Source: an uncultured delta proteobacterium (GTDB lineage: Bacteria > Desulfobacterota > Syntrophorhabdia > Syntrophorhabdales > WCHB1-27). From it: DNA of 64,000 nucleotides. A program made the translations under genes and the position numbers. The stretch covers positions 1 through 64,000 of the forward strand of contig CAWEPK010000008.1 in the NCBI GenBank assembly GCA_963810935.1, read 5' to 3'. Below, piece after piece: positions 15,657 through 32,215 of this stretch (its first letter is position 1; each line of letters begins with the position of its first letter). Under the pieces are notes generated by a model. The model was not told where the DNA came from and searched no databases. It was given only the letters and a program-made list of their open reading frames with translations.

Positions 15657-15673
15657 CGCCTCCCTTCGGCCCT

Positions 15674-16765: not shown

Positions 16766-17788
16766 CTAATTCCCCTTTACGGCGGCTGTCATCGCCTTGA
16801 TATGCGCTATGGGAGTAGAAGTGCTCAGGCCGCACGCGGGGGAGATTATATCCACATCGTCCCGAACCAGTTTCCTTGCCGTCTTTGCGATCTTGCCGGC
16901 AGGGCCGAATTCCAAAAGGTACGTGCTGACGTTCCCCATCGTTGTCAGTCGCGGGTATGTCTGCTTCAAGCCGCGCAGGCTCACCATGGCATCTGTACTG
17001 ACTGCATCGGCTCCTATCGCGGGGATAAGATGCGCGACAGCCTTCATGTCCCCGCAGATATGAACTATGACGGGCGTGTCTGCATCACGTACGGCTTGCA
17101 CGATCTTTTTCAGATACCTGACCGCGTACTCTTCAAAGGTCTTCGGCCCGAGTATCTCTCCTGAGGCGGTAGGGTCGGCTATGCAGACGGCGTCCGCTCC
17201 GCTCTCGACAAGCGACCTCGCATACGCGATCAGGAAGCGGCTTACGTGGTCGATTATCCGGTGCGAGTTTTCCCTGTCCTTCCTCAGCTCCTTAAGGAAC
17301 GCGGAAGGGTCCACCAGTGAGGCGGCGGCCGTGACCGGCCCCGTGATGTTCCCGATGACGGGGATATCCGGATATCTGCGGGACAGGATGCCCGCCGCCC
17401 GGACGACCGTACGAATGCGACTTGAATTCAGCAGATCGTTAATATCCTTGCACACCACTTTCGAGACGGAGGGAAATTTTTCTTTCGCGACCTTCGGCTC
17501 GCAGGTGAGGCTGCCGTAATCGATTTCGCTCCCCATGGCCTGCGCCTCGGCGGTGACGTCGAAAGGAACACCCAGGTTCTCGAAGCCCGTCTGCTCGTGT
17601 ACATCGTAGGCAAGCTCCGCCATGAGCGTGCTGTCAGTGTGGGCTTCGGGCAAACGGTGGCCCGTCTTTCTCATGATGTCCACCACGGCAGCGTTCATCA
17701 TGCCGCCGGCGCAGATTACGGGCGGCCGGTCCGGTGTTTTCTTCGCCAGGACCGCCATCAACCGCTCTTTGGGGTTCAATGCAGCCAT
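16766..17788 (-). CDS. MtaA/CmuA-type methylcobamide methyltransferase (UroD family)
   Basis: VHICG and SPACGL Zn ligands; GPVTAA. Confidence 0.85.
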   Translation of the reverse strand: MAALNPKERLMAVLAKKTPDRPPVICAGGMMNAAVVDIMRKTGHRLPEAHTDSTLMAELAYDVHEQTGFENLGVPFDVTAEAQAMGSEIDYGSLTCEPKVAKEKFPSVSKVVCKDINDLLNSSRIRTVVRAAGILSRRYPDIPVIGNITGPVTAAASLVDPSAFLKELRKDRENSHRIIDHVSRFLIAYARSLVESGADAVCIADPTASGEILGPKTFEEYAVRYLKKIVQAVRDADTPVIVHICGDMKAVAHLIPAIGADAVSTDAMVSLRGLKQTYPRLTTMGNVSTYLLEFGPAGKIAKTARKLVRDDVDIISPACGLSTSTPIAHIKAMTAAVKGN

Positions 17789-17790
17789 GA

Positions 17791-18858
17791 TTATTTTTTT
17801 GCCACCAGCGGCGAATGCGCCGGGTCTCCACCTATCTCCGCGGCCGTATCGAGCATGGCCCGTATGTTCTCGAAAGGGGTGTCGATAGGCAGGCTGCAGC
17901 CGGAACAGATCACATAGCCCTTGGGGTTGTCATGGGCCTGCCTGACGCATTGGATAGTCGCTTTGCGCACGTCTTTCGGCGTCCCCGCGTACATCACGCC
18001 GGAAGGGTCAACGTTCCCCGTAATGCGCACCCTGTCGCCCACCCGCTCCTTGCACTCGGAAAGGCTCGCGACGTTATCGATGCTGAGGCAGTCCGCCCCT
18101 GTGTCGGCCATCCCCTCCCAAATCTTGTCCGTCTTGCCGCATATATGGAGCGTGACCGGTTTGCCCCTGGAGTGTACATGGGCGATGAGCCGCTTAAGGT
18201 ACGGGAATGAATACTCCATGAAATGTTTGGGACTGACGATGGTGGTGGACGACATGGGCTCGGAAACGGTCGGCGTTAGCCCTATATCGATAAAGGCGTC
18301 GGCGTACCGGACGGCCGTCTCAAAAGAAACGGCGCACAGCTTGTGCACCGCTTCGGGGTCTCTGGCTAGGAGCCTTGACAGTTTCTCGACGCCGATCAGG
18401 AAAAACGCGTTCGTGAATGGACCGACGACGCCGCCCGAGCAAGACACTTCCGCCCCCAGTGCATCGATGACTATTTTGGCGGCTTCGAGGTGGGAAGGAA
18501 GGCGGCCGTCATGGTATGGGTCTGCCGGCTGAATGTCGTCTATCCCGGCGAGGTCGGTTATGGCGGGCGCTTCCAGGTCGGCCGTGTCGTCTACCGGATA
18601 GCAGACCTTTGCCCCCATGGCCTCCGCCTGGACGTAAAGGTCCGTAAAGGGCCTGACGCCGTCGTATGCGAACATGCGGTAAGCGGCGATGTGGGCTTGT
18701 GCGATCAGTTGTCCGTTGTTCCTGAACTCGGACACCTTACAGCCGATAACCCTTGCTGCGCCGTTCGCGATATTCGGGTTGCAAGGCAGGCGGTCTATCC
18801 TTTCCCCTTTGTTGTAAGCGATCATCCGCTCAAGCGAAGTTATACGGTCTCTATCCAT
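17791..18858 (-). CDS. Second UroD/MtaA-family methyltransferase
   Basis: GPFT, LHICG, GNVDP and CSGCSLP. Confidence 0.85.
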   Translation of the reverse strand: MDRDRITSLERMIAYNKGERIDRLPCNPNIANGAARVIGCKVSEFRNNGQLIAQAHIAAYRMFAYDGVRPFTDLYVQAEAMGAKVCYPVDDTADLEAPAITDLAGIDDIQPADPYHDGRLPSHLEAAKIVIDALGAEVSCSGGVVGPFTNAFFLIGVEKLSRLLARDPEAVHKLCAVSFETAVRYADAFIDIGLTPTVSEPMSSTTIVSPKHFMEYSFPYLKRLIAHVHSRGKPVTLHICGKTDKIWEGMADTGADCLSIDNVASLSECKERVGDRVRITGNVDPSGVMYAGTPKDVRKATIQCVRQAHDNPKGYVICSGCSLPIDTPFENIRAMLDTAAEIGGDPAHSPLVAKK

Positions 18859-19513
18859 TGTCCAAGCCTCCTGTCAGCTTACGGGCCAGCTTCGCCGCGA
18901 GCGATGCGTTTGCGGCATAGCCGTTCGCGCCTATCCGCTCAGCGAATCCTTTCGAGATGGGCCCGCCGCCGACCATCACCCTGACCCGGTCTTTCATGTT
19001 GCCTTTTTTCAGAAGCGCCACGACTTCTTTCATCCCGTTCATCGTAGTCGTCATCAGCGTGGAGAGGGCGATGATCCGTGCGTCCGTCTCTTTCGCCTTT
19101 TCGATAAACGCCCTGGGGGAAACGTCCCTCCCGAGATCGACGACATCGAAGCCTGATGTCTCCAGCATGATCTTCACGAGGTTCTTGCCTATGTCGTGGG
19201 TATCACCTTCAACCACGCCGATGACGACCTTTACCTTGGTCCCGCCGTCATCAACGGGCAGGTGCGACTTGAGGACATCGAGGCCGGCGTACATGGCGTC
19301 GGAGCAAAGCAAGAGCTCCGGTATAAAGTATTCCTCCGCTTCATAGAGCTTACCGGCCCTGTTCATTCCGTCGGATAGACCCTTGTTGATTGCCCGATAG
19401 GCGTCGAGTTTGCCATCTGCCACCGCTCTCGATATTCTCACGGTTTCTTCTTCATCCATATCGAGAACGGCGTCCGAAAGGGATTTATATAAACGTTCTT
19501 TTAGTATTGCCAT
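18851..19513 (-). CDS. Methyltransferase-cognate corrinoid protein
   Basis: GDTHDIGKNLV, STLMTTTM and MVGGGP B12-binding motifs. Confidence 0.92.
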   Translation of the reverse strand: MAILKERLYKSLSDAVLDMDEEETVRISRAVADGKLDAYRAINKGLSDGMNRAGKLYEAEEYFIPELLLCSDAMYAGLDVLKSHLPVDDGGTKVKVVIGVVEGDTHDIGKNLVKIMLETSGFDVVDLGRDVSPRAFIEKAKETDARIIALSTLMTTTMNGMKEVVALLKKGNMKDRVRVMVGGGPISKGFAERIGANGYAANASLAAKLARKLTGGLDNG

Positions 19514-19691: not shown

Positions 19692-19817
19692 CTAGAGGGG
19701 AACGACCGGACGATGAGACACCTCTCCCTCCTTCCGTGACATTTTAAGGCCTACCCTAGGCCTTTCGCGGCCATACGCGACCGCTCACGTGAGAGAAAAG
19801 GGCGCCTGACGAGGCAT
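19692..19817 (-). CDS. Putative selenocysteine leader peptide A (MPRQAPFSLT-U-AVAYGRERPRVGLKMSRKEGEVSHRPVVPL)
   Basis: SD AAAGGAGGTGA; ATG 19817; in-frame TGA 19787-19785; hairpins follow; TAG 19694-19692. Confidence 0.65.
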
Positions 19818-19856
19818 GGTCTCACCTCCTTTACCTTTCAAGTCGAATCGTCCGTA

Positions 19857-19885
19857 ATGCTAAATTAAATATTTCCGTATGTCAA
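19857..19885 (-). promoter_or_regulatory. sigma70 promoter for leader A and the corrinoid operon
   Basis: TTGACA-N17-TAGCAT on the minus strand. Confidence 0.75.
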
Positions 19886-19911
19886 ACGTAATCAAGGCGT
19901 GCGAAAGGTAT

Positions 19912-19941
19912 TTGACTTGCGGACAGGTTCGGGTATAGAGT
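19912..19941 (+). promoter_or_regulatory. sigma70 promoter for leader B and selD
   Basis: TTGACT-N16-TATAGA (or N18-TAGAGT). Confidence 0.55.
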
Positions 19942-19990
19942 TAAGCAGCAACGCGCACTCGCAAGTAAAAATAAACAGTAAAGGTGTGCA

Positions 19991-20095
19991 ATGTTCAAGA
20001 TTTGCGCGTGAATTGAAACAGGGGCGCCGGGTGGCGCGCTTGGCTTCGCCTCCATACGTCGGGTAATGGAGCAGTCTCTCCTCGCGGTCGTTTAA
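19991..20095 (+). CDS. Putative selenocysteine leader peptide B (MFKICA-U-IETGAPGGALGFASIRRVMEQSLLAVV)
   Basis: SD AAAGGTG; ATG 19991; TGA 20009-20011; SECIS-like GCGCC-GGGT-GGCGC with the loop starting at +18; TAA 20093-20095. Confidence 0.65.
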
Positions 20096-20114
20096 CCTTC
20101 CAGGGCTTCTCCTT

Positions 20115-20144
20115 GCGGCCGGCGCATGCCGGCCGTTGTTATTT
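20115..20144 (+). terminator. Attenuator-type terminator in the selD leader
   Basis: GCGGCCGGC-GCAT-GCCGGCCGT followed by TGTTATTT. Confidence 0.6.
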
Positions 20145-20191
20145 GTCCGTCTCAATATAGCAAGGGGCAAAATTCGTTAAAGGAGAGGCAC

Positions 20192-21217
20192 ATGGAAACA
20201 GCACTTACGCAGCACGCCCGTTTCGGGGGGTGCGGGGCGAAGATCGGCCCCGGCGACCTTTCGAACATACTCTGCGGGATCGACATCCCCGAGGACGCCA
20301 ACGTAATCGTCGGTCTCAAAGGCTTCGAGGACGCAGGCGTCTACCGCATCACCGATGAATTGGCCGTCGTCCAGACAGTCGATTTTTTCACGCCTGTCGT
20401 GAACGACCCGTACACGTTCGGCAGGATCGCGGCGGCCAATGCCCTTTCGGACATCTACGCAATGGGCGCGAATCCGGTGACTGCCCTCAACCTCGTTTGT
20501 TTCCCGCCAAAGAAGCTCGATATAAGCATACTGCGCGATATCCTGCGCGGGGGCATCGACAAGGTAAGGGAAGCGGGGGCGAGCCTGCTGGGCGGCCACA
20601 GCGTAGATGACGATGAGGTCAAGTACGGCCTGTCCGTGACGGGCCTTGTACATCCCGACAGGATCGTGAGGAACGAGGGCGCCGGGCCGGGCGACCTGCT
20701 CGTCCTCACGAAGCCGCTGGGTACGGGTATCCTCATAAGCGCCATGAAAGGAAATCAGGTGTCTCCGGAGACGGAGGCGCAGGTGTCGTCCGTCATGGCG
20801 ACGCTTAACAGGCAGGCATCCAAGGCGATGCTCGCAGCGGGCGCCCATGCTGCTACGGACGTGACGGGCTTCGGCCTTGCGGGCCATCTCAAGGAGATGA
20901 TAAAGGAGGACATCGGCGCGGAAATTGACGCCGCAATGCTGCCTTATTTTCCCGAGGCGGAGGGCCTTGCAGCCGCCGGGTTCCTCCCGAGCGGCTTCTA
21001 CAGGAACAGGGATTTTTACTCGCCGTCCGTGGAGTCGGAGGTGGACGGCTTCTTGTTCGACCTGATATTCGACCCCCAGTCATCGGGCGGGCTTCTCATC
21101 GCCCTCGGGGAGGGCGATATGGAGGCTTTCGACAGGGAGGCGAAAGGCCGCTCCGTGGATTACCGGGTGATAGGCCGCTTCACGGACGGGCCGAAAGGGA
21201 AGATACACGTCGCCTGA
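20192..21217 (+). CDS. selD: Selenide, water dikinase (selenophosphate synthetase), Cys form
   Basis: GGCGAKIG (TGC codon), QTVDFFTPVV, AANALSDIYAMG, TDVTGFGLAGHL and DPQSSGGLL. Confidence 0.95.
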   Translation: METALTQHARFGGCGAKIGPGDLSNILCGIDIPEDANVIVGLKGFEDAGVYRITDELAVVQTVDFFTPVVNDPYTFGRIAAANALSDIYAMGANPVTALNLVCFPPKKLDISILRDILRGGIDKVREAGASLLGGHSVDDDEVKYGLSVTGLVHPDRIVRNEGAGPGDLLVLTKPLGTGILISAMKGNQVSPETEAQVSSVMATLNRQASKAMLAAGAHAATDVTGFGLAGHLKEMIKEDIGAEIDAAMLPYFPEAEGLAAAGFLPSGFYRNRDFYSPSVESEVDGFLFDLIFDPQSSGGLLIALGEGDMEAFDREAKGRSVDYRVIGRFTDGPKGKIHVA

Positions 21218-21281
21218 ACGCCTTACGGCCCTTACGCAGAGAGTTGCGGGGAACCGACAAGTTGAAGGAGGAGAAGAGAAG

Positions 21282-21734
21282 ATGAAGGAATTCGAGCCCA
21301 ACATTGTTGCGTATTGTTGCGAGTACTGCGGGTATGCCGCAGCCGACCTTGCCGGCTCCATGCGGATTTCGTATCCCGCCAACGTGAAGATCGTCAAGAT
21401 CCCGTGCACCGGCAGGTTCGACATCATCCACGCACTTAAGGCCTTCGAGTCGGGTGCGGACGGGGTCTTCCTCGTTGGATGTCTCGAAGGGAATTGTCAT
21501 TTCGAGACAGGGAACCTGCGGGCCAAAAAGCGGGTCGAACATCTCCGCCGCCTGCTGGACGAGTGCGGGATAGGCGGCGACCGCTCGGGCATGTACAACA
21601 TGTCTTCCGCAATGGGCAGGCAGTTCGCGGAAGCGGCACGCGAGATCACGGAAAAGGTAAGGTCGCTTGGACCCAACCCTGCGAGGAAAGCGAGGAAGAG
21701 GGGCGGCGAACACACCGTCGGGGCAGCCCTGTAG
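21282..21734 (+). CDS. mvhD: MvhD/FlpD-type [2Fe-2S] hydrogenase delta subunit, Cys form
   Basis: CCEYCGYAAADLAG, PCTGR and GADGVFLVGCLEGNCHF. Confidence 0.9.
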   Translation: MKEFEPNIVAYCCEYCGYAAADLAGSMRISYPANVKIVKIPCTGRFDIIHALKAFESGADGVFLVGCLEGNCHFETGNLRAKKRVEHLRRLLDECGIGGDRSGMYNMSSAMGRQFAEAAREITEKVRSLGPNPARKARKRGGEHTVGAAL

Positions 21735-21782
21735 CCGGAAGCAACCGCCGGGGGCTTATCCTGCCCGGCCCCTTAGCGGCTA

Positions 21783-21811
21783 TTGACTTTGCGCGGGTGC
21801 CCTTATACTAT
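21783..21811 (+). promoter_or_regulatory. sigma70 promoter for leader C
   Basis: TTGACT-N17-TACTAT. Confidence 0.7.
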
Positions 21812-21844
21812 ATATGTGGCCGGTGCAATCGCCGGCAGGATAAA

Positions 21845-21946
21845 ATGATGAAAATATACGGGATAATATTTGTTCCATTGAGCTGAGAAGCGAGCGGGAG
21901 GCCCGTGAGGTCTCCACTTCCGTCCGCTGCCGCTTCACCGCCCTGA
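21845..21946 (+). CDS. Putative selenocysteine leader peptide C (MMKIYGIIFVPLS-U-EASGRPVRSPLPSAAASPP)
   Basis: SD AGGA; TGA 21884-21886; then 10 nt and GGAGGCC-CGTGA-GGTCTCC; second TGA 21944-21946. Confidence 0.7.
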
Positions 21947-21960
21947 CCCTTCTTTTTTGG

Positions 21961-22019
21961 ACCTCTCGGGAAATCCGGGCGCGAAGATGTCGCGGCCGGA
22001 TTTTTTGTCTCCGGGAGGT
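21961..22019 (+). terminator. Terminator / SD-sequestering hairpin upstream of the double-cubane reductase gene
   Basis: AAATCCGG.GCGCGA-AGATG-TCGCG.GCCGGATTTTTT; the outer ACCTCTCGG pairs with CCGGGAGGT, which contains the SD. Confidence 0.7.
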
Positions 22020-22023
22020 TTAA

Positions 22024-23211
22024 ATGCCTGACAGCAATCAAATATATCCATATGCGGTCGAGCCGCTGATCGAGGACGACTACGCAGGCGAGCCGCCCGC
22101 CAAGCGCCTCCTTGCGTATCTTCAGAGCCGGCGCGAGGCCGGCTCTAAGATCGTGGGCATCTACTGCGGCTACGCGCCGGTAGAGATAATCCGCGCCCTC
22201 GGCCTCGTGCCCGCTTCGCTCTGCGCGTTCTCAAACGCGACGATAGAAGCTGCTGAGGCGGTGCTGCCCGCCAACCTTTGTCCCCTTATAAAATCGAGCT
22301 ACGGCTTTATCATGAAAGACGCCTGTCCTTTCTTTGCGGTCTCCGACGCGGTGGTGGCCGAGACGACGTGCGACGGCAAGAAGAAGATGTTCGAGCTGAT
22401 CGCAGACCGCAAGCCGATGCACGTCATGGACCTGCCGCAGGTGCCGGACGAGCCGGAGGCGCTCGACAACTGGACCACGATGATCCGCAAGCTTCAGAGG
22501 TTCCTCGAATCCGTGTTCGGCGGCAAGGCAACCGACGAACAGATAGAGTCTGCCATCCATGACACGAACGAGAAGGCCCGGCGCATGAATGAGATATTCG
22601 AATACGCGGCCCTCAACCCGCCGGTGATAGGGTGGCCCGAGCTTTATGACGCCCTTTTCCTGGGCCAGGGCGCATCGGGGGCCGACCTCGCGCCCATACT
22701 CGACGGGATGCTTGAGAAGCTCGAAAAACGAAAACGCGACGGTTACGTCTATGGGCCGAAAGGCGCGCCCAGGGTCATGGTGACGGGGTGTCCCGTAGGC
22801 GGTGATTCGCTAAAGGTGCTTACGGCGATAGAAGAGGCGGGAGGGGTAGTCGTCGCACTCGATTCATGCTCCGGCATGAAGCCCTACGCGGACTACATCG
22901 AAGAAGGCACGGGGGACCCCGTGCGCGCGATGGCTGCGCGATACCTGAAGGTCCCGTGCTCCTGCATGACGCCGAACAGGCGCCGGCTCACGGAGATTGA
23001 CAGGCTTATCGAAAAGTTCAGGCCGGACGCGGTCGTGGACGTAGTCCTCCAGGGGTGCCATTCGTACAACATAGAATCGATCAAGGTGGGTGAGAGGGTG
23101 CGGACGAACCACGGCCTGCCTTTTCTCACCGTAGTCACCGATTACTCACAGGGCGATATCGGGCAGATGCGGACGCGAATGGAGGCTCTTCTGGAAATGT
23201 GCAGGCAATGA
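22024..23211 (+). CDS. Double-cubane-cluster reductase (2-hydroxyacyl-CoA dehydratase D family)
   Basis: YCGYAP, LCPLIKSSYG, CPFF, ETTCDGKKKM, DSCSG, PCSCMTPN and GCHSY. Confidence 0.85.
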   Translation: MPDSNQIYPYAVEPLIEDDYAGEPPAKRLLAYLQSRREAGSKIVGIYCGYAPVEIIRALGLVPASLCAFSNATIEAAEAVLPANLCPLIKSSYGFIMKDACPFFAVSDAVVAETTCDGKKKMFELIADRKPMHVMDLPQVPDEPEALDNWTTMIRKLQRFLESVFGGKATDEQIESAIHDTNEKARRMNEIFEYAALNPPVIGWPELYDALFLGQGASGADLAPILDGMLEKLEKRKRDGYVYGPKGAPRVMVTGCPVGGDSLKVLTAIEEAGGVVVALDSCSGMKPYADYIEEGTGDPVRAMAARYLKVPCSCMTPNRRRLTEIDRLIEKFRPDAVVDVVLQGCHSYNIESIKVGERVRTNHGLPFLTVVTDYSQGDIGQMRTRMEALLEMCRQ

Positions 23212-24390
23212 AGCCCATCTATTTCGATAATGCGGCTACCTCGTGGCCCAAGCCGCCCGCTGTGATAGAGGCGATGGCGCAGGTTCAACGACGCGGTAGG
23301 GGGCAACCCCGGCCGCTCCGGCCACAGGCTTTCCATCGAGGCGGCCCGCGTAGTCTTCGAGGCGAGGGAGCTTGTGGCGCAGCTTATCGGCGCCCCCGAC
23401 CCGCTCTCTGTCGTTTTCACGAAGAACGCAACGGAGGCGCTCAACTGCGTCCTTCTCGGCCTGCTCAAACCGGGCGACCACGTTGTCACGACGTCCATCG
23501 AGCATAATTCGGTGATGCGGCCCCTGCGCTTTCTCGAAGGGCAGGGCGTAGAGCTTTCCATTGCGCGCTGCTCGCCTGCGGGAGAGCTGGACCCGGAAGA
23601 CGCAGCGGCCTGCATGAGAAAGAATACCCGCGCCGTTGTGGCGACCCACGCCTCCAACGTCACGGGCACATTGCTTCCCATAGAGGAGCTTGCGGAAATC
23701 GCGCACCGGTACGATGCGCTCCTGGTTGCGGACGCTTCCCAGACTGCGGGCTGCGTCCCGATAGACGTTGCCGCATCGGGCATCGACGTCCTCTGTTTTA
23801 CGGGTCACAAGTCCCTCCTAGGTCCGCAGGGGACGGGCGGCTTCTACGTGCGCAAAGGGGTCGAAGAACGCCTTCTCCCGCTCATGCGGGGCGGCACGGG
23901 AAGCGCCTCCGAATCGGAGGAGCAGCCTGAGTTTTTGCCGGACAGGTTCGAGTCGGGCACACCCAACACCATCGGCCTCGCGGGACTCGCCGCAGGCGTC
24001 CGTTTCGTGCTTGACGACGGGGTAGGGCGCATCCGGGAGAGGGAGATCGGCCTGACGCGGCAGTTTCTTGAAGGGGCCGGGGCTATCCTGGGCATAACCG
24101 TTTACGGGCCGCCGGAGGCGGACCGGCGCACAGCCGTCGTCTCCTTCAACCTGAAGGGCGGGAGTCCGTCGGAGCTTGCCTTCGACCTCGACGAGCGTTT
24201 CGCCGTCCTGTGCCGTCCGGGCCTGCATTGCGCCCCTGCCGCGCATCGCACCATAGGCACCTTCCCGCAAGGGGCCGTGCGGTTCAGCTTCGGATTCTAC
24301 ACGACTGCGGATGAGGTCCGCGCCGGGCTGGCCGCTATGGCGCAATTGAGCGCCGAACACTATGCTTCCAAAGGAGGAACTAATGTCTGA
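23208..24390 (+). CDS. Cysteine desulfurase/selenocysteine lyase-family (class V PLP) enzyme; apparent 1-nt insertion near 23280
   Basis: IYFDNAATSWPKP is out of frame with NPGRSGH...EHNSV, TGHKSLLGPQG and RPGLHCAP. Confidence 0.88.
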
Positions 24391-24988
24391 GCTGGTGAAT
24401 GCGAAAGGCCTTGCCTGCCCGGAACCCGTTATACTGGCAAAAAAGGCGCTCGATGCGCATGACGAGGTTACGGTGCTGGTCGATAATGAGATGTCGCTGG
24501 AGAACGTGCAGCGCCTGGCCTCATCTTCGGGATGCGCAGTCGAGACTATAGCAGAGGCGGGCGGGGTCTTCCGTCTCGAAATAAAAAAACAGCAGGGCAA
24601 AGCGACGCCGTGCGCTGCGTCGCCGGGACCCGCGCCTGTGCAGAGCAGCCAGGGGCCTACCATATTCGTTATCGCGTCGAATATCATGGGCTACGGTAAC
24701 GACGACCTGGGCGCGCTCCTGATGAAAGCGTTCATCCATACGGCCGTTGACCTGGAACGCTTACCCGACATGATGATCTTATACAACACGGGTGTTAAGC
24801 TGGCCGCGCCGGATTCAGGCGCGCTCGACGACCTGAAGGCGCTCGAAGAGAAAGGGGTGAAGATACTCGTCTGCGGCACGTGCGTCAATTTCTTTGACCT
24901 GACAGGCAAGATCGGCGCGGGGACCGTCTCCAATATGTACGACATAGCGGGCGCGCTATCGAGTGCGGGCAGAATCGTGAAGCCTTGA
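24383..24988 (+). CDS. yedF: Selenium-metabolism protein YedF (TusA/SirA plus DsrE-like domains)
   Basis: KGLACPEPVI, YNTGVKL, LVCGTC and VSNMYDI. Confidence 0.85.
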   Translation: MSELVNAKGLACPEPVILAKKALDAHDEVTVLVDNEMSLENVQRLASSSGCAVETIAEAGGVFRLEIKKQQGKATPCAASPGPAPVQSSQGPTIFVIASNIMGYGNDDLGALLMKAFIHTAVDLERLPDMMILYNTGVKLAAPDSGALDDLKALEEKGVKILVCGTCVNFFDLTGKIGAGTVSNMYDIAGALSSAGRIVKP

Positions 24989-25224
24989 AGGAAGAGCAGA
25001 AGCAGCGTTACCTGGTTGCCATGTTCGCTTCCGTCAGCATGGTGATGAAGGCGGAAAAGATACTCAAGGCGGCGGGTGTCCCCCACAAGATAATTCCCGT
25101 ACCCAGGAGCATCAGCTCTGACTGCGGGGTCTGCATCCGCTTACTGCCCGAAGACAGGGAAACCGTAGTTGAGGCGCTCGGGGCCGAGGTGCGCGTGAGC
25201 GAGATACGCGAGCTGGAGCGATGA
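24985..25224 (+). CDS. DUF3343-family small Se/S carrier-like protein
   Basis: IPVPRSISSDCG motif; coupled to yedF. Confidence 0.8.
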   Translation: MKEEQKQRYLVAMFASVSMVMKAEKILKAAGVPHKIIPVPRSISSDCGVCIRLLPEDRETVVEALGAEVRVSEIRELER

Positions 25225-25275
25225 GGACTTGCTTATGAGCACAATGGCGTTTGCGTACGCCCGGAACGATAAGCA

Positions 25276-25735
25276 ATGACGCTCGACCTTGTGCGCCGGG
25301 TGGCGCTCTCACCCCGTTTGTATATACCTGTACGGCTCGGCCTTGCCGTTCTTTTTATCTATGCGGGCGCGGTAAAGCTCGCTGACCCGAGGGCGTTTGC
25401 CCGCACCATCTCCCACTACGGCCTCGTACCCGAACCCCTGCTGCCCACCGTTGCAGTGGGGCTGCCGGTAATGAGAGCTGCTCGCCGGTATTGCGCTGTT
25501 GTTAAATCTGGTGCCCGGCCTGCACGCCGTATCCGTCCTTCTTTTGCTCTTTGCCGGCGTCCTCGGCTACGGTTACTTCACCAATATGGATATAGACTGC
25601 GGCTGCTTCGGACAGCAGGAGCTGGCGGAGCACAAAGGCCTCGTTTATGCTTTTTATCGCGACCTCGGGCTTCTCGCAACGGTCGCGTTTCTTCACTGGT
25701 CGCGCATTGCGCGCAGCAGACCCGTTTCAAAATAA
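25276..25735 (+). CDS. MauE/DoxX-family membrane protein; apparent 1-nt insertion near 25473
   Basis: The FIYAGAVKLADP...GLPV frame joins the ELLAGIALL...IDCGCFG frame. Confidence 0.8.
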
Positions 25736-25755
25736 CAGACTGAGGGAGGTTTAAA

Positions 25756-26268
25756 ATGACGTTGAAAAAGACGGTTGTTGCGGCCCTGGTTGTTGCGGGT
25801 ATATTTTGCTTCGCAGGGTCGGGTAAGGCCCTGGCCGCATGGGGAGACAAGGAACTGGAGACGGAAAAAACGGCGGTTGCCTTCCAGCGGGAGGTTGTAA
25901 GGGGCGCATACAAGGTCGTGACGACCGAAGAATTGAAAGGCTGGATCGACCAGAAGAAGGAGATGCTGATCGTCGATACGATGCCCGCCGACAACTTCAA
26001 GAAAGAGCATATACCGGGGGCCGTCAACTTCCCCCTGCCTATCCCCGAAATGAAAGAGATGGACGCAAAGACGAAGGCCGATCTCGAGAAAGTCCTGGGG
26101 CAGAACAAAGACCGGCTGATTGTTTTCTATTGCGGCTTCACGAAATGCACGCGGAGTCATAACGGTGCGATGTGGGCGGTGAAGCTGGGCTACAAGAACG
26201 TTTACAGGCAGCCCGGAGGCATCAAGGCGTGGGATGAGGCGGGGTATCCAGTGGAGAAGTCTAAATAG
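25756..26268 (+). CDS. Exported rhodanese-like sulfur/selenium transferase
   Basis: Signal peptide; HIPGA, FYCGFTKCTRSH and GGIKAW. Confidence 0.88.
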   Translation: MTLKKTVVAALVVAGIFCFAGSGKALAAWGDKELETEKTAVAFQREVVRGAYKVVTTEELKGWIDQKKEMLIVDTMPADNFKKEHIPGAVNFPLPIPEMKEMDAKTKADLEKVLGQNKDRLIVFYCGFTKCTRSHNGAMWAVKLGYKNVYRQPGGIKAWDEAGYPVEKSK

Positions 26269-26281
26269 GCGGAAAGCCCCC

Positions 26282-26968
26282 TCAAGGGTACCATTTCACG
26301 AGCTTCTCCGGGTGGACGCCCGCCAGGTAAAGCACCATGATCGTCCAATTCCGCAGTGTGCATCCGGCAATGCCTTCTTTTTGCCAGCGGCGGGCGGAGG
26401 TCTGCACCTTTTTATCGATTATGCAGATCTTCCCGCCGCGTTTTTTTACCCTGCGCATCAGGTCTACATCTTCCATGATCGGCATGTCGCCGTAGGCGCC
26501 GATGTCCGTAAAGTAGTCGCGGGCTATAAAGATAGCCTGGTCCCCGTAAGGTACGCGCGTCAGGCGCGAGCGCATGCTCGATATCTGCTCGATGACGCGG
26601 AACACGCATCGGCTGTCGCTTATCCCAAGGTCGAACGCCCCGGCCGCGAATTGCCCGTCCGCCATTACCGACGCGACTTTTTCGAGTCCGCCGGCAGGGA
26701 GCGCCGTATCCACGTGGAGGAATAGAAGCACGTCGCCATGCGCGGCAGCGGCCCCGGCGTTCATCTGGGCGGCGCGTCCTTTCGCGGAGACAATGCCGTG
26801 CGCACCGCCCCTGATAGCGCTCACGGTCTCGCCTCCAGGGCTTCCGTCCACCACGATGATCTCTACCGTCCCTTCCGGCGTTTGCGCAGCCTGGGCGGCA
26901 AGGCGGCCTATCGCGTCATTGACTATCGCCTCTTCATGGAAGACGGGGATAATGACGGAGATGCTCAC
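26282..26968 (-). CDS. GT2 glycosyltransferase, rSAM/selenodomain-associated transferase 2 type
   Basis: ISVIIPV, VVDGSP, GRAAQMNAGA, LFLHVD, PYGDQAIF and TSARRW. Confidence 0.85.
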   Translation of the reverse strand: MSISVIIPVFHEEAIVNDAIGRLAAQAAQTPEGTVEIIVVDGSPGGETVSAIRGGAHGIVSAKGRAAQMNAGAAAAHGDVLLFLHVDTALPAGGLEKVASVMADGQFAAGAFDLGISDSRCVFRVIEQISSMRSRLTRVPYGDQAIFIARDYFTDIGAYGDMPIMEDVDLMRRVKKRGGKICIIDKKVQTSARRWQKEGIAGCTLRNWTIMVLYLAGVHPEKLVKWYP

Positions 26969-27645
26969 GGCTTGCCGAGCCTCTCCCTTACGAAATCGAG
27001 GGACGCGAGGACGCCGGACGGCAGATGTTTGTTGCGTTCCCGGAAGGCAAGAAGGTCGTCGTAGACATCGATGTCTCTCCAGACCGGCAGGATATGGACG
27101 CAGAGGCCGTGCCTTTTGAGCACGGCTATTGTCGTGTCGAATACGCCCGGTGCCCCCCATTCTACCCCTGAGAAAGGCGCATCGATCAGGGTCGCTGGCC
27201 GGAAGCCTATGAGGTAGTATCCACCGTCCGCTGCGGGGCCGATGACAACGTCCCGCGTCCGCAATCCCTCGAATGCCTCTTTCAGTAAGACAGATGGGAG
27301 GTCTGGGAAGTCGCTGCCTATGAGGACGGCCCGGGCGCAGCCCGAAAGGGCCTGCGCGAGCGCGGAGAACATCCTCTGTCCGAGGTCGGCCCCGGCCTGG
27401 GGCAGACACGTTATATCATCGCCGAGCCAAGCTGCGACGTCCTCTCGCGCGTCCGGCGGATGGAAGCGGACGAGCGGGGGGTAGCCCGCCTTGCGGGCGG
27501 TTGCCAGGATATCGGAGACACAGGCGCCATAAAAGGCCGCGGCATCGTCGTCGCCTATCTTTCGTGCAAGCCTCGTTTTGACCCGGCCTTTTTCGGGGAG
27601 CCTGACAAAAACGATCAGCCGTTCATCAGATGGCTGGTTTATCAT
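26965..27645 (-). CDS. DUF2064 transferase, rSAM/selenodomain-associated transferase 1 type
   Basis: GRVKTRL, DLGQRM, IGSDFP, GPAADGGYYLIG and DID. Confidence 0.85.
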   Translation of the reverse strand: MINQPSDERLIVFVRLPEKGRVKTRLARKIGDDDAAAFYGACVSDILATARKAGYPPLVRFHPPDAREDVAAWLGDDITCLPQAGADLGQRMFSALAQALSGCARAVLIGSDFPDLPSVLLKEAFEGLRTRDVVIGPAADGGYYLIGFRPATLIDAPFSGVEWGAPGVFDTTIAVLKRHGLCVHILPVWRDIDVYDDLLAFRERNKHLPSGVLASLDFVRERLGKP

Positions 27646-27651
27646 CGGCCC

Positions 27652-28609
27652 TCACGCTGTCTGGCCCTGGCACGAGCTCGCCCGCGCCCGCCGTGCACCC
27701 GTAGCAGTGGTCGCCGACGACGATGCGCCGGGCGGCAAGCGCGCCCGTATCGAAATCGGAGATGTGGTATGGAGCGCCGTGGTTTATCGTCAGGCCGAGG
27801 ACCTGATTGAAGTCGCAGTCGTAGAGGCTGCCGTCCCAGCCTACCGAGACGGTCGATTTGCACATCACGCCGCTCAAACTCGCCGGGTTGAAGGCAGCGA
27901 TAAGACTCTTCATATAATCCTCGTAATTGCCCGATGCGAGAAGATACTCAAGGTAGCGTCCTATGGGCATGTTCGTTATGCAGAAGAGATGGTTGAAGCT
28001 TACCCCGTGACGCTCGGCGAGGACCTGCCTGAAAAGCGCCTCAAGCCCTGCCTGCGATCCGGGGAGATATGCGCCTGCCGGGTTGTGCACGAGATCGAGG
28101 ACCAGTCCGCTGCCCTCCCGCCCGTAGCCGAGGGCGTTGAGACGGGCAATGACTCCGATCAGACCGGTGAAGACGCCTTCACCCCTCTGGCGCTCGGTCA
28201 GCCTGGGATCGACGTGGGGCAGGGAAAGGACGACCTCGATCCCGGTGGCTGCGTAAAGATCGATGAACGGCTCGTATCTCTTTTCCAGAAGGACGACGCC
28301 GTTGCTTCGCACGAGGACGCGCCGCCCGAGGGCGGCACATGCCTGCAAAAAAGGCCGCAGGCCGGGATGCAACTCCGGGCTGCCCCCCGTTATATCGACT
28401 ACGGGGATGTCCTGGCTGCGCACCACTTCGAGGCACTGCTCCATCACCCTATCCGGCATCACTTCCGACCGTTCGGGACCTGCCTGCACGTGGCAATGCC
28501 TGCATTGGAGGTTGCACCGGTAGCCGACGTTCACCTGGAGGACGCCGATGCCCGAGGCCATGATCGGCACCCGCGCCTTGTCCTCGAACGATGGTGAGAC
28601 TTTCGACAT
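27652..28609 (-). CDS. arsS: ArsS-like radical SAM/Cys-rich protein, Cys form; apparent 1-nt insertion near 27680
   Basis: CNLQCRHCH, DITGGSPEL and YDCDFNQ; removing one base restores the C-terminus HCYGCTAGAGSSCQG. Confidence 0.85.
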
Positions 28610-28617
28610 CCTCACTT

Positions 28618-28950
28618 TTACATCTCCTTCTTCCTGACTATCTTCCTCATCTGGGTAGAGTGCGCAAGGACTATACCGGCAGTCATGGCGGCGCCCACGT
28701 GGACGGCCTCCATCATCTCTTCCCTGGATATGCCCAGAGACAGGCAGTGGTTCGTGTACGCGTCGATGCAGTAGGGGCATTTCTGCGTAGTCGCGACTGC
28801 CAGGGCTATAAGGCTCTTTTCTTTCTCGGTCAGGCGTCCCGCTTTCATTGCCTCGCCGTAATAATCAAAATACTTCTCCCCGAGCGCCGGCGCGTACTCA
28901 CCGATATTCGGAAAGTCTTCAAGGTCCTTCGTCTCGTAGTATTCTCCCAT
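28618..28950 (-). CDS. AhpD/CMD-like peroxidase associated with ArsS
   Basis: EKSLIALAVA..QKCPYCIDAY. Confidence 0.85.
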   Translation of the reverse strand: MGEYYETKDLEDFPNIGEYAPALGEKYFDYYGEAMKAGRLTEKEKSLIALAVATTQKCPYCIDAYTNHCLSLGISREEMMEAVHVGAAMTAGIVLAHSTQMRKIVRKKEM

Positions 28951-28964
28951 AAATATGCCTCCTT

Positions 28965-29402
28965 TCACGATATTTTTGAAGTACCGCCCCATCGCGCAAC
29001 TGCCGCGCCGGGAATCCACACGAGGTTTGCCGTACCCAGAAGGCAGAGCAAAATCATATCGATCTGCCATAGGGAGAGGAAGCCAAGATGAAAGCCGTCC
29101 CTGAAAAGGGCGGCGGGCACGATGAGCAGGGCTTGTGTGGCCGGTGTATATCCTGCAAAGAGTATGGCGGCGGCAAGCAGCTCCAGGAGCAGGAAGACGA
29201 CGAGCCGGATCTGCCGCCGGGCAGCGCCGAAGGCTGTTGCGAAGACAGCCGTCAAAAGGGGTATCGCGTGCCCGGTTGTCAGGCGCATCTCCAGCCATAT
29301 GAACCGATTAAGGATGAGGGCCAGGCAGAGACCCGCAACCATGCCGGCAAGGGCGGCTTTTATATAGTTGCGGACCGTTCCTGGCTGACAGTTATCGGGC
29401 AA
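28965..29402 (-). CDS. Hypothetical integral membrane protein
   Basis: About four hydrophobic segments; sits within the operon. Confidence 0.6.
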   Translation of the reverse strand: MPDNCQPGTVRNYIKAALAGMVAGLCLALILNRFIWLEMRLTTGHAIPLLTAVFATAFGAARRQIRLVVFLLLELLAAAILFAGYTPATQALLIVPAALFRDGFHLGFLSLWQIDMILLCLLGTANLVWIPGAAVARWGGTSKIS

Positions 29403-29420
29403 AAGTCTTCCCTCCCCTGC

Positions 29421-30062
29421 CTATCTTGCGGCCTTGAAGGTAATGATTACGAGCGTGCCGTCAGGCGGAAGCACTTCCCTGTTGCCCATGAGGGAAACTT
29501 CTTTCCGCGACTCGATGGCCCCGTAGGTATACGTCGCGTTGCTAGTTATGCCGACCGGGCAACTGTCCAGGCACATGAGGCAGCCTGTCTTCATGTCCAT
29601 CGCTGCCTGGAGGTTCCCACCGAAACGGATAACGAGCGGCTTGCCGCTGCTGTCCTTGATCGCCTCGTCGATGCGGTAGACCTTCGGCGCGCCTTTCCAC
29701 GTCACGAAGACGTCGAGCCTGTCCCCCTGGACGTGGGTCTTCTCTTTGTTGTCCCACGTCACGTTGTTCCCCGGCGTCAGGCCGAGCTTCACGAGGGCGT
29801 CGTAAAAGGGCTTCGGTTCCGCAAAGGCGGCAAAGACCGATTTGCCCCCATTCGACCCTCCCTTGAAGACTACCCCGTGCCGGGTCGTCTGAACGAGGTA
29901 CTTTCCGTTGACCTGGGCGAGGACGGAGACGCTACGGGCTTTCATATCGATGACGAGCGGGTTGTTTGGCGTGGGGCCTGTCTCCTGTGAGAACGCGGGT
30001 ATCGCCGTAAACGCCGCGAGCAGGGCGACGGCCAGGGCCCATACGAAAAAGTGTTTCTTCAT
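29421..30062 (-). CDS. YdjY-family exported protein
   Basis: Signal peptide; TRHGVVFKGGSNG and GCLMCLDSCPVGITSN. Confidence 0.75.
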   Translation of the reverse strand: MKKHFFVWALAVALLAAFTAIPAFSQETGPTPNNPLVIDMKARSVSVLAQVNGKYLVQTTRHGVVFKGGSNGGKSVFAAFAEPKPFYDALVKLGLTPGNNVTWDNKEKTHVQGDRLDVFVTWKGAPKVYRIDEAIKDSSGKPLVIRFGGNLQAAMDMKTGCLMCLDSCPVGITSNATYTYGAIESRKEVSLMGNREVLPPDGTLVIITFKAAR

Positions 30063-30117
30063 ACTTGTTCCTCCTGGTGACTTGGTTTTGTCTTTTTGTC
30101 GGGTATCTGCACGGCTC

Positions 30118-31977
30118 TCATACAAGGTCGTCCTTTCCGTGCTTTGCCTTGTAGCGCCTGTAGAGCAGGGGCAGCACCGAGACGAGGACGATAAGGACGA
30201 GGCCGATGATAAACGTGAGGGAGACCTTGCCGCGCGCAAGGTCGAGGAGAGAGCTGGAAAAAACGATAAACGCGATGCAGGCGGGCAACATGCAGAAAAA
30301 GGTGGCGATTGCATATTGGCGGAAGCCGATGCTGGTCAGCCCGAATGCATAGTTGAGGAGGTTGAACGGAAAAATCGGGACCAGGCGCGTGAAGGCGACG
30401 ACCTTCCATCCGTGTTTCTCCACCCCCTCGTCGAGCCTCTTCCACCTGGGACTACTGAGGTGCTGCGCCACCCATTCGCGCGCGAGGTAGCGGGAGACGA
30501 GGAAGGCGACGCAGGCGCCCGCCGTAGCGCCGATTATCGCATAAATGACGCCCCAGAACGGCCCGAAGATGATGCCTCCGACGACAGTGATGGGCGTCCC
30601 CGGCAGGAAAAGGGCGGGGGCTACCGCGTAGATGATTACATAAATGACGGGCGCGAGGGCGCCATACCCTGCTATCAGGTTGCGGAGGGTTTGCTGGTCC
30701 AGGTATCGGGAGAGGCCGGCGGTCTTTACTACTGCAATGGCTGCCGCCACAAAGAGCACGAACAAAAGGAGCTTTGCCATGCCGCCTTTCTTCTGCGGCT
30801 CCTTACCCGTGAAGGTGCGCTCCCTGGAGACCGCGGCGGGTACGTTCTCCTTGAACCATTTCTTCAGCCTGAGCCGCTTCCAATAGGTGAGGGGAGGCTT
30901 TGCTACCTTCGCTCTGCCGTCGGGATCGGGCCCGTCATCCCAGAGGATATCGAGGATATGCGCAGCAGGGGCGAGCTTCGAGAGCATATTTGCGCAGCCC
31001 GCGCAGTAAGTGATGACTTTTTTTCCGACGGCTTCGGTCCGTCGCCGCCTGCCCCAGACCGCCGCAAGCTCGGGAGCAAGGGCGCCGACCGCCCCGCCTT
31101 CGCCGCAGCAAAAGGTCCGGCTGCCGGTGTGCTCCATCTCCATGATTGCCCGGCCTTTGTTCCCGATCAGCTTTCGGACCGACCTGTGCATCTCCTCATC
31201 GAACCGCACTGCACACGGGTCGTGCACGGTGACTGCCTCTCCGGTCAGCCCGGCGCGCCCCCCGTCGCCGCAGTCTTCGGCGAGCACTTCATATAGGCTC
31301 CGGATCGAAAGACCCGTGCCGTAGCGGACGAACATCCTATAGCAGTTCGGGCAAGCGACGATGACGCGCGTAACGCCATGCGCGGCGAGGTAGCCCCTCA
31401 TCTCCGCGAACATGGCGTTGAAATGGTCCTCTCTGCCGAGGTCGTGAGAGGGTTTCATACAGCAATCGAGCACTATGCCGATGGATGGGAGCTTTTCTTT
31501 CAGGCGCTTGTAGACGAGCTTGACCTTTTCGGAGCGTGTGCCGGCGAGCGTGCAGCCGGGAAAGAAGACCGTATCGCAGCCTGCCGGGAGCGCATAATAC
31601 GAATACTTGCGGGAAGTGCCGCGCCTTTCGTATCCCTTCAGGACGGCGTGCTCCGGATAGTCGCCTCTACCCTGCCTCACGGCCTCTCTGCGCATCTCCA
31701 AAAAGAGGCGCGCCGGGTCGATCTTCGCCGGGCAGACCGCGGTGCAGAGGCCGCAGAGGCTGCATTCGAAGGGCAGGGCCAGGTCCTCTTTCCGCAAGGC
31801 GGGGTCGTACCGGTCCGCTATCTCTTTGGGTTTGCCGTGTTTCTTGAGGAAGGCGCACTCTTTCCGGCAGAGGTCGCATTCAATACAGGCGGTGGAGACC
31901 AGGCCCAGCTCTTCCTGCATTGTCGCGCTAAGCCCGGTTGTTTTGTCCGGGGAGCGCACTTTCGGCTTTGCGGCCAT
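30118..31977 (-). CDS. Fe-S/CCG-domain oxidoreductase fused to a TVP38/VTT (DedA-like) membrane domain
   Basis: CIECDLC, CSLCGLCTAVCP, FFPGC, HDPC and CCGEGG; C-terminal RLVPIFPFNLLNYAFG. Confidence 0.85.
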   Translation of the reverse strand: MAAKPKVRSPDKTTGLSATMQEELGLVSTACIECDLCRKECAFLKKHGKPKEIADRYDPALRKEDLALPFECSLCGLCTAVCPAKIDPARLFLEMRREAVRQGRGDYPEHAVLKGYERRGTSRKYSYYALPAGCDTVFFPGCTLAGTRSEKVKLVYKRLKEKLPSIGIVLDCCMKPSHDLGREDHFNAMFAEMRGYLAAHGVTRVIVACPNCYRMFVRYGTGLSIRSLYEVLAEDCGDGGRAGLTGEAVTVHDPCAVRFDEEMHRSVRKLIGNKGRAIMEMEHTGSRTFCCGEGGAVGALAPELAAVWGRRRRTEAVGKKVITYCAGCANMLSKLAPAAHILDILWDDGPDPDGRAKVAKPPLTYWKRLRLKKWFKENVPAAVSRERTFTGKEPQKKGGMAKLLLFVLFVAAAIAVVKTAGLSRYLDQQTLRNLIAGYGALAPVIYVIIYAVAPALFLPGTPITVVGGIIFGPFWGVIYAIIGATAGACVAFLVSRYLAREWVAQHLSSPRWKRLDEGVEKHGWKVVAFTRLVPIFPFNLLNYAFGLTSIGFRQYAIATFFCMLPACIAFIVFSSSLLDLARGKVSLTFIIGLVLIVLVSVLPLLYRRYKAKHGKDDLV

Positions 31978-32119
31978 TCCATCACCCCTGTTCTTTAGCT
32001 TACAGGCCGCCCGTACGCGCTTCCGTTCAGCACGGGCACGCCGCCGTTCTATTGTCTTTCTCGATTACCTGTTTTTGCCTTCCGACCTTCGACTTCCCGG
32101 CCGTAGGCTATGGACGGCC

Positions 32120-32215
32120 CTATCGGCGCCGGGCGGGGAAGGTGGAGGGGCTCATTGAAGGTCGCACGGACCTCCACGCAATCGATCAGATCGACATTTT
32201 GCTTAGATAGAGCAC
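32120..32215 (-). CDS. Putative selenocysteine leader peptide D (MLYLSKMSI-U-SIAWRSVRPSMSPSTFPARRR)
   Basis: SD GGAGG; GTG 32215; TGA 32188-32186; then 10 nt and GGAGGTC-CGTGC-GACCTTC; TAG 32122-32120. Confidence 0.7.

Follow-up and report, generated by a model that had tools for sequence, protein, structure and literature searches.

Leader-peptide attenuators of the trpL, hisL, pheL and leuL type, which govern amino-acid operons, are described in the introduction of PMC3892789. Here we examine four short upstream open reading frames (uORFs, designated A to D), each with a single in-frame UGA followed by a hairpin, between positions 19,692 and 32,215 of a 64,000-nucleotide stretch of DNA (the window; contig CAWEPK010000008.1, assembly GCA_963810935.1) from an uncultured delta proteobacterium of the order Syntrophorhabdales. 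Judged from sequence, the four elements are probably translated regulatory leader peptides that sense selenocysteine (Sec). Like the trpL-type attenuators, they are short translated leaders with their own Shine-Dalgarno (SD) sequence, in which the position of the ribosome would select an antiterminator or an intrinsic terminator, and the genes under control would supply the sensed amino acid. The predicted energies are also similar, with a competing helix of about -12 kcal/mol set against a stronger terminator. Unlike the trpL-type attenuators, the sensing element is a single UGA that would need a hairpin resembling a selenocysteine insertion sequence (SECIS) together with SelB, rather than tandem sense codons. 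In addition, no region-1 helix is supported here, a Ser-Pro-Pro-stop lies on the competing strand, the base of the terminator sequesters the SD, and a terminator is present in only two of the four leader types.

Two other described leaders share some of these parts. In Escherichia coli, the selAB leader carries a SECIS-like element without UGA or uORF, which acts on the initiation of selA translation. The present locus resembles it in having a SECIS-like hairpin that leads selenium-metabolism genes and is presumably read by SelB, but here the hairpin follows the invariant UGA of a translated uORF. In tnaC, the ribosome on the leader peptide stalls at a UGA stop that adjoins a Rho site, and the signal is free tryptophan acting via the nascent peptide. 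This is a possible parallel for leader D, which has a C-rich tract, although tnaC involves neither recoding nor a SECIS. To our knowledge, it is not known how bacteria sense their selenium status, or what decides between the use of a selenoenzyme and that of its cysteine (Cys) paralogue, as for the formate dehydrogenases, hydrogenase-linked HdrA/MvhD and SelD.

The closest precedent for an effect of Sec decoding on transcription is fdhF(Sec) of Treponema primitia, where a UGA that is not decoded as Sec uncouples translation from transcription and changes elongation (Matson et al. 2013, mBio, PMC3892789). That organism has Sec and Cys isoenzymes, the Cys form being up at low selenium; in the available text of the paper, the induction of the Cys form is left open, and it is stated that no natural attenuator based on a rare amino acid had been reported. 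The likeness to our leaders lies in the effect of failed UGA decoding on transcription and in the Sec/Cys isoenzyme pair. In contrast, the UGA of fdhF(Sec) is the catalytic codon of the enzyme's own gene, and the outcome is that transcript downstream of it is lost; the same text describes no dedicated leader peptide. The earlier note on this DNA, written from the sequence alone, knew of no system with the architecture described below, and a full-text literature search agreed with it, finding no Sec-codon leader peptide or attenuator, subscription-only papers aside. A word search of the available text of a 2026 review (PMC13188914) found leaders or attenuation nowhere mentioned. The leaders would work like a leader-peptide attenuator, but one that senses through a recoded stop codon dependent on a SECIS.

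Four leader open reading frames

The uORFs and their associated elements are given below. Leaders of the C, D, B and A types are referred to as classes I, II, III and IV, respectively. Elements marked MFE were taken from the minimum free energy fold.

Leader A (class IV), minus strand
19857-19885, minus: sigma-70-like promoter, TTGACA-17-TAGCAT (promoter scan, 10 of 12 matches)
19692-19817, minus: uORF, with SD AAGGAGGTGA at 19831-19822, ATG at 19817, UGA at 19787-19785 and TAG at 19694-19692
19746-19784, minus: two hairpins 3' of the UGA, GCGGTC..GGCCGC (19784-19767) and AAGGCCT-AGGGT-AGGCCTT (19764-19746)

Leader B (class III), plus strand
19912-19941, plus: promoter-like site, TTGACT-18-TAGAGT (promoter scan)
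19991-20095, plus: uORF, with SD AAAGGTG at 19980-19986, ATG at 19991, UGA at 20009-20011 and TAA at 20093-20095
20019-20042, plus: SECIS-like hairpin, core GGCGCC-GGGT-GGCGC at 20024-20037, loop at 20029-20032
20050-20071, plus: second hairpin, CTCCAT..ATGGAG
20105-20114, plus: anti-SD-like sequence, GCTTCTCCTT
20115-20146, plus: intrinsic terminator, GCGGCCGGC-GCAT-GCCGGCCGT and T-run (terminator scan; 9 pairs, 8 of them G-C)

Leader C (class I), plus strand
21783-21811, plus: promoter-like site, TTGACT-17-TACTAT (promoter scan)
21845-21946, plus: uORF, with ATG at 21845 or 21848, UGA at 21884-21886 and stop TGA at 21944-21946
21897-21915, plus: SECIS-like hairpin, GGAGGCC-CGTGA-GGTCTCC, loop at 21904-21908
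21933-21943, plus: region 2, CTTCACCGCCC, the last codons (Ser-Pro-Pro), complementary to the terminator 5' arm GGGCGCGAAG at 21977-21986
21959-21971, plus: anti-SD, GGACCTCTCGGGA (MFE)
21971-22003, plus: terminator stem, with T-run at 22001-22006 (MFE)
22009-22019, plus: SD of the first gene of unit C

Leader D (class II), minus strand
32120-32215, minus: uORF, with SD GGAGG at 32229-32225, GTG at 32215, UGA at 32188-32186 and TAG at 32122-32120
32157-32175, minus: SECIS-like hairpin, GGAGGTC-CGTGC-GACCTTC, loop at 32168-32164
32150-32123, minus: C-rich, G-poor tract running from the hairpin to the uORF stop

The positions proposed for the four uORFs in the earlier note were borne out, and each uORF has an SD, a start codon, one in-frame TGA and a hairpin. 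Leader A encodes MPRQAPFSLT-U and 30 further amino acids (10 codons, UGA, 30 codons), leader B MFKICA-U and 27 (6 codons, UGA, 27), leader C (M)MKIYGIIFVPLS-U-EASGRPVRSPLPSAAASPP (12 or 13 codons, UGA, 19), and leader D VLYLSKMSI-U and 21 (9 codons, UGA, 21). It was also correct, as the note had it, that the apical loops of B, C and D (GGGT, CGTGA and CGTGC) begin at the 18th base after the TGA, and that the hairpins of C and D differ through compensating changes. In leader A, the first hairpin abuts the TGA and the second, better conserved one (19764-19746) has its loop about 26 nucleotides (nt) after the TGA. All hairpins sit 100 to 300 nt upstream of the regulated start codons, within the uORF that contains the UGA. 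The note had placed a promoter before all four units; -35 and -10 matches were found for A, B and C, but the promoter scan found none for D. An intrinsic terminator is located between the uORF and the gene in B (20115-20146) and C (21971-22006) only.

By itself, the pattern is at most modestly beyond chance. The 4.06-Mb genome of this organism was searched with a generic scan, consisting of an SD, a start codon, 4 to 16 codons, TGA, a hairpin with its loop at +17 to +24, and 15 to 40 more codons. This gave 49 sites, and the rate per codon occurrence for TGA was not above that for TAA, TAG, TGG, TGC, TGT, CGA or GGA. About 0.24 such sites would be expected in the 20-kb island, and three were found (B, C and D). 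Elsewhere, the same scan picked up two near-identical short frames with TGA and a 10-bp hairpin, 125 nt apart, on the plus strand of contig C1 (C1:60731 and C1:60856). Since the pattern alone is weak, the case that the leaders are real rests on their conservation across other genomes.

Conservation of the leaders

Upstream regions of orthologs of the first unit C gene (HGD-D family) were inspected in relatives, and the same leader was present. A 49-nt covariance model of the TGA and hairpin of the C and D types, model R1, was then applied to 61 genomes of the order; 60 sites were found in 36 of these, and they fall into two classes, class I (n = 44) and class II (n = 16). Fifty-nine of the 60 sites have an in-frame start without an intervening stop. 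A second pattern that makes no use of the TGA, consisting of region 2, the stop and the terminator arm, gave 17 sites in 16 genomes and none in a reversed control. The earlier note had singled out replacement of the TGA in orthologous leaders as a point to check, and no replacement was found: TGA is at the model position in 60 of 60 R1 sites, and it lies 21 codons upstream in 17 of the 17 TGA-independent sites. Model R1 is essentially order-specific. In a phylum-wide sample, searched with stricter filters that may lose weak matches, it matched three of 151 genomes, namely the present genome, one of the same order and one other. Related leaders are also found ahead of the same gene cluster in four contigs labelled Syntrophus.

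The class I leaders have a nearly fixed layout. In 38 of 44 the start is exactly at codon -12 relative to the UGA (ATG in 35), the frame after the UGA has 20 codons in 36 of 44 and 19 to 21 codons in 41 of 44, and the uORF ends in Ser-Pro-Pro in 30 of 44. Among the 41 leaders with 19 to 21 codons, the stop is TAA in 25, TGA in 13 and TAG in three. Beyond the stop, an anti-SD comes first, then an intrinsic terminator and last the SD of the first gene. The codons that lead up to the UGA encode a conserved motif, (I/L)F(I/V/L)P(L/S)(G/D/S); the hydrophobic ones keep T at the second position, and in codons -5, -3 and -2 variation is greatest at the third. From these substitutions, the residues before the UGA show a coding pattern. 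Class II leaders have a GGAGG SD, 9 or 10 codons ending in Ile, the UGA, the hairpin and a C-rich tract, without a terminator. Their stop comes mostly after 16 to 24 codons (47 in one; n = 16). Of these 16, one is truncated at the end of its contig and another has no start in frame.

Two further occurrences of class I leaders should be mentioned. In genome G050, two lie 337 nt apart before an HdrA-like gene (G050:C1:142265 and 142602; L057 and L070). The hairpin and tail of this pair are identical and the N-terminal peptides differ, a tandem duplication of the leader. In the present genome, outside the window, a leader at C8:400947 on the minus strand (MIRIADLLFPSG-U...) has a terminator and SD and stands before a secreted rhodanese gene; it was missed by the R1 genome search under strict filters.

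The B type was traced through Cys-type selD. Twelve such loci were examined in the order, and six have a B-type leader (the present genome, G002, G001, G008, G009 and G011). The layout of 6 codons, UGA, 27 codons and TAA or TAG is kept in all six, as are a covarying hairpin, the second hairpin, the anti-SD and the terminator. The consensus fold of the hairpin in the six sequences has 11 pairs, four with compensatory changes. For three other Cys-type selD genes, a class I leader is located 4 to 7 kb upstream on their own strand, an observation of proximity that does not imply a shared operon. The A-type leader was found in six further distinct sequences (G002, G008, contig C1 of the present genome, G020, G014 and G011), and an in-frame start, the TGA and two hairpins are present in seven of seven distinct sequences. 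Their consensus fold has 15 pairs, three with compensatory changes. The second A-type leader of the present genome, at about 6595-6709 of contig C1 (L128:1516-1571, minus strand), is upstream of an HdrA-like gene, and a Cys-type FlpD gene (C1:2797-3168) lies further down the same strand. Conservation of the spacing in relatives had been put forward as a check on the proposal, and the order SD, start, UGA, hairpin and stop is conserved in all four leader types.

Reading frame and similarity to SECIS elements

The frame through the UGA is free of stops in all four classes, and the other two frames often contain them. We counted the sequences with at least one stop in frames 0, +1 and +2 relative to the UGA frame. 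After the UGA, these numbered 0, 23 and 8 of 42 in class I, 0, 12 and 1 of 16 in class II, 0, 4 and 5 of 6 in class III, and 0, 6 and 7 of 7 in class IV. Before the UGA, the corresponding numbers for class I were 0, 37 and 11 of 43.

The Sec machinery, which remained to be confirmed in the earlier note, is present in the genome in the form of selA, selB and tRNA-Sec. ARAGORN predicted three tRNA-Sec genes (C4:30323-30418, C6:4921-5016 and C11:126660-126755), at least one of which lies where a contig ends; the gene may truly be present in several copies, or the extra ones may come from redundancy of the assembly or from contamination, estimated at 7%. The window itself has one tRNA gene (54738-54811, minus strand), its sole Rfam match at gathering score.

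Genuine selenoprotein genes with an in-frame TGA were identified in this genome for selD (on C9), two FlpD and two FdhA. In four of the five (selD, FlpD on C16 and both FdhA) the SECIS loop starts at position 21 to 23 from the U of the UGA; for the fifth (FlpD on C12) no clear hairpin was obtained. The loops of leaders B, C and D start at position 21 on the same count, and the comparison that the note had called for thus yields the same UGA-to-loop spacing in these three leaders as in four of the five genuine elements. Both sets of loops are G-rich (GGGU, CGUGA and CGUGC in the leaders; GGG, GGGCU and GGUCU in the genuine SECIS elements). Criteria of the bSECISearch type call for a hairpin just 3' of an in-frame UGA, with the apical loop at about 16 to 37 nt and a G among the first loop bases. 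The leaders conform to this description, with the loops of B, C and D 18 nt after the TGA and that of the second hairpin of A at about 26 nt. The class I hairpin is well conserved as a structure; in 37 leaders, 98.5% of 259 cells are paired, a level that none of 500 shuffles reached. The four uORF peptides matched no family in Pfam or NCBIfam.

Predicted output of the leaders

The anatomy of the leaders, their conservation, the open frame and the gene content are what the sequences show; insertion of Sec, binding by SelB, stalling of the ribosome and the direction in which the genes are controlled are inferred. In outline, the single UGA and SECIS-like hairpin, read by SelB and Sec-tRNA(Sec), would report the capacity for Sec insertion. 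For class I, the modelled folds make ribosome-mediated transcription attenuation the most likely mechanism. With ample Sec-tRNA, the ribosome would pass the UGA, melt the hairpin and run 20 codons to the Ser-Pro-Pro-stop. Prolines slow termination, and a ribosome paused there would cover region 2, so that the terminator could form, its base would sequester the SD of the first gene and the genes would be OFF. With scarce Sec-tRNA, the ribosome would stop or be released at the UGA, and the free region 2 could pair with the 5' arm of the terminator as an antiterminator, leaving the genes ON. The B type has the same parts (uORF, UGA, hairpin, anti-SD and terminator) and probably the same logic. 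In the D type, the output may be Rho-dependent termination at the C-rich tract. We are more confident of the Sec-sensing reading than of its direction, by which B and C would be ON when selenium is low.

The class I terminator helix is paired in 93.8% of cells among 37 leaders, five of its 10 pairs show compensatory changes, and none of 500 shuffles reached this pairing. Region 2 of class I (UUUCUCCGCC) can base-pair with the terminator across its 5' arm and its loop. When region 2 was aligned with the terminator arm in the 37 leaders, 88.2% of cells were paired, compared with 36 to 57% when it was slid. The predicted duplex has an energy of -14.1 kcal/mol in leader C; over 36 leaders the mean was -11.6 kcal/mol, against -7.9 kcal/mol for shuffles, and the duplex was stronger than its own shuffles in 34 of 36. 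We also folded 38 class I leaders with a ribosome-sized mask on either the uORF stop or the UGA. Masking the stop gave a predicted terminator in 37 of 38, and folding without a mask in 29 of 38. In leader C, the terminator had 17 pairs unmasked, none when masked at the UGA and 17 when masked at the stop.

Several results weigh against attenuation as set out above, or against the Sec-sensing reading as a whole. The earlier note took all four leaders to be Sec-tRNA attenuators; in the strict sense of a terminator with a competing helix, attenuation is supported for the C type and, through its terminator alone, for the B type, whereas for A and D, in which the terminator scan found no intrinsic terminator, support covers the sensor part (uORF, UGA and hairpin) only. 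Covariation of the antiterminator is weak, with 14 of 500 shuffles reaching the observed pairing, and exchanging the terminator arms among leaders gave pairing with region 2 no poorer than that within each leader, in a comparison whose anchoring was off by one base and which is weak either way. A trp-style region 1 beside the UGA paired with region 2 no better than shuffles (19 of 36); this helix was dropped, its duplex being at shuffle level and RNAalifold and a pair scan having failed to recover it. The terminator was still predicted in 24 of the 38 class I leaders with the mask on the UGA. Ribosome masks left the predicted terminator unchanged in all five B-type leaders for which MFE folds were computed, and no consistent change in SD accessibility was seen in 13 class II leaders under such masks. 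In class II, the C-rich tract hints at Rho, and under a Rho model control might run the other way, with the genes ON when selenium is present. As Ser-Pro-Pro coincides with region 2, a role at the level of the peptide is inseparable from one at the level of the RNA, and much of the peptide conservation after the UGA is accounted for by the RNA hairpin itself. Rfam, searched at gathering score and at E up to 10, gave no match to a SECIS model, only one tRNA and chance-level matches; its bacterial SECIS families are narrow, so the missing match weighs little.

Genes downstream of the leaders

The genes of the four units, as identified with Pfam and NCBIfam, are as follows.

Unit A, 13830-19513, minus strand
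13830-19513, minus: corrinoid protein (MtbC/MtaC-like), two MtaA/CmuA-family methyltransferases, SsuA-like binding protein, ABC ATPase and permease

Unit B, 20192-21734, plus strand
20192-21217, plus: Cys-type selD (GGCGAK)
21282-21734, plus: Cys-type MvhD/FlpD (CEYCGY)

Unit C, 22024-26268, plus strand
22024-23211, plus: double-cubane-cluster reductase, HGD-D family
23208-24390, plus: NifS/Sec-lyase-like aminotransferase, frameshifted
24362-24988, plus: YedF
25276-25743, plus: MauE/DoxX membrane protein
25756-26268, plus: rhodanese

Unit D, 26282-31977, minus strand
31977-30118, minus: HdrD-like Fe-S/CCG protein fused to a DedA/VTT membrane domain
30314-29421, minus: YdjY-domain protein
26282-29298, minus: cassette of AhpD-like TIGR04169, radical-SAM ArsS-type TIGR04167 (28780-27626), TIGR04282 (27645-26965) and TIGR04283 (27409-26282)

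Sec-type paralogues of the unit B genes are found elsewhere in the genome, selD on C9 (GGG*ASK) and FlpD on C16 (CEY*AY) and C12 (CHW*AY). The first genes behind 54 leaders encode HGD-D/double-cubane reductases, NifS-like proteins, TusA/DsrE/YedF, rhodanese, ABC transport, HdrD-like and HdrA-like proteins, and FdhA; the FdhA proteins behind the G054 and G059 leaders have Cys at the Sec site. By family assignment, the genes under the leaders are of selenium trafficking types and of families that are often selenoproteins, in Cys form where checked. The presence of Cys forms under the leaders and of Sec paralogues elsewhere fits a switch that is ON at low selenium. Given that the controlled genes comprise selenium trafficking and scavenging functions together with Cys versions, such a switch would start a selenium-sparing programme when selenium is scarce.

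Some features of the individual units deserve comment. In unit A, the corrinoid protein, MtaA-type methyltransferases and SsuA-like importer could, speculatively, scavenge methylated selenium compounds. The ATG of the NifS-like gene of unit C (23208) overlaps the HGD-D stop, the frame changes after about 27 codons (near 23285), and from 23374 the sequence matches Aminotran_5 from profile position 53. The break reflects a frameshift, an error of assembly or pseudogene status; in G001 the ortholog is intact (394 amino acids). HGD-D orthologs that appeared to have one TGA were considered as Sec forms and withdrawn, translation showing that this TGA is the terminal stop. In unit D, the TIGR04282 and TIGR04283 products are glycosyltransferase-like, and the cassette of TIGR04169, 04167, 04282 and 04283, annotated as 'arsenosugar biosynthesis' with the radical SAM '(seleno)protein' ArsS, may act on selenium instead of arsenic.

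Alternative explanations

The hairpins could be SelB operators like the element in the E. coli selAB leader, bound by free or charged SelB that directly represses or activates the mRNA, with the uORF and UGA as by-products of a copied SECIS. The SECIS-like geometry and the selenium-related regulon would suit such an operator. We nevertheless regard it as improbable, since four unrelated families have preserved an SD, a start, exact numbers of codons and a frame free of stops before and after the UGA, and the hairpins lie well upstream of the regulated starts, not over them. About equally improbable is the idea that the uORFs encode small selenoproteins of 31 to 41 amino acids with one Sec, for example selenium carriers, that merely share operons with selenium genes. 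An open frame of fixed length through the UGA and a conserved peptide motif before it would be expected of such proteins. However, unrelated peptides of four families are found at one and the same place, the part beyond the UGA tracks the RNA hairpin, a terminator separates the peptide gene from the next gene in classes I and III, no Cys variant occurs among the 60 R1 sites, and the peptides belong to no Pfam or NCBIfam family. The leaders might instead sense UGA termination, release factor 2 (RF2) activity or general translation and coupling independently of Sec, with a hairpin that just slows the ribosome; tnaC and prfB use comparable logic. The conserved residues before the UGA point in this direction, and the C-rich tract behind the class II hairpin resembles a Rho loading site. 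Against it, the regulon is specifically one of selenium and includes Cys paralogues of selenoproteins, the hairpins have the spacing of genuine SECIS elements, and an open frame with a fixed end after the UGA would be pointless if the UGA always terminated. This account is improbable too. The least credible of the alternatives is a riboswitch-like structured RNA that binds a metabolite or protein, in which the uORF and UGA are incidental. Conserved leaders with terminators and SD-sequestering helices speak for it, but the only strongly covarying element upstream of the terminator is one simple hairpin, an invariant TGA with an in-frame start and a stop-free frame is unexpected in an untranslated aptamer, and no Rfam family was matched.

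A further possibility retains the Sec sensor and reverses its sense, so that read-through with ample Sec would turn the genes ON, for instance with a translating or stalled ribosome hiding a Rho site or the anti-SD. This is unlikely as a general account, with a chance that is small but real, and it may hold for D and A only, neither of which has a terminator. The part after the UGA is C-rich and G-poor in class II (C 47%, G 17%, mean of 16) and class I (C 37%, G 19%), and the anti-SD is close behind the uORF stop, at 8 to 14 nt in class I and 9 nt in B; both features are what a reversed switch would use. It is opposed by the class I folds, where 37 of 38 leaders keep the terminator with a ribosome placed on the stop, and by the Cys back-up enzymes, for which expression is sensible only when selenium is low. 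In addition, the Cys-type fdhF of T. primitia goes up under selenium limitation, according to the available text of PMC3892789.

Significance of the leaders

Returning to Sec-sensing leader peptides as the favoured reading, we lean, with some reservation, to the broader view that at least two orders of Desulfobacterota, the Syntrophorhabdales and Syntrophus-like Syntrophales, carry natural leaders of this kind in at least four unrelated classes. In these, decoding of the UGA by SelB at a SECIS hairpin within the uORF would set transcription termination and access to the SD, switching between selenoproteins on the one hand and Cys back-ups and scavenging on the other. The regulon points to uncharacterised genes of selenium metabolism, including the double-cubane reductase with ATPase, the HdrD-DedA fusion, the YdjY-domain protein, the ArsS-type radical-SAM cassette and the corrinoid methyltransferases with ABC importer. 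The leaders could also serve as selenium-responsive genetic parts. They would extend leader-peptide attenuation to the 21st amino acid through a concrete mechanism with clear mutational predictions. If the reading is true, they would be the first natural attenuator built on the recoding of a stop codon, and the long-missing selenium sensor behind the switching of Sec and Cys isoenzymes in bacteria.

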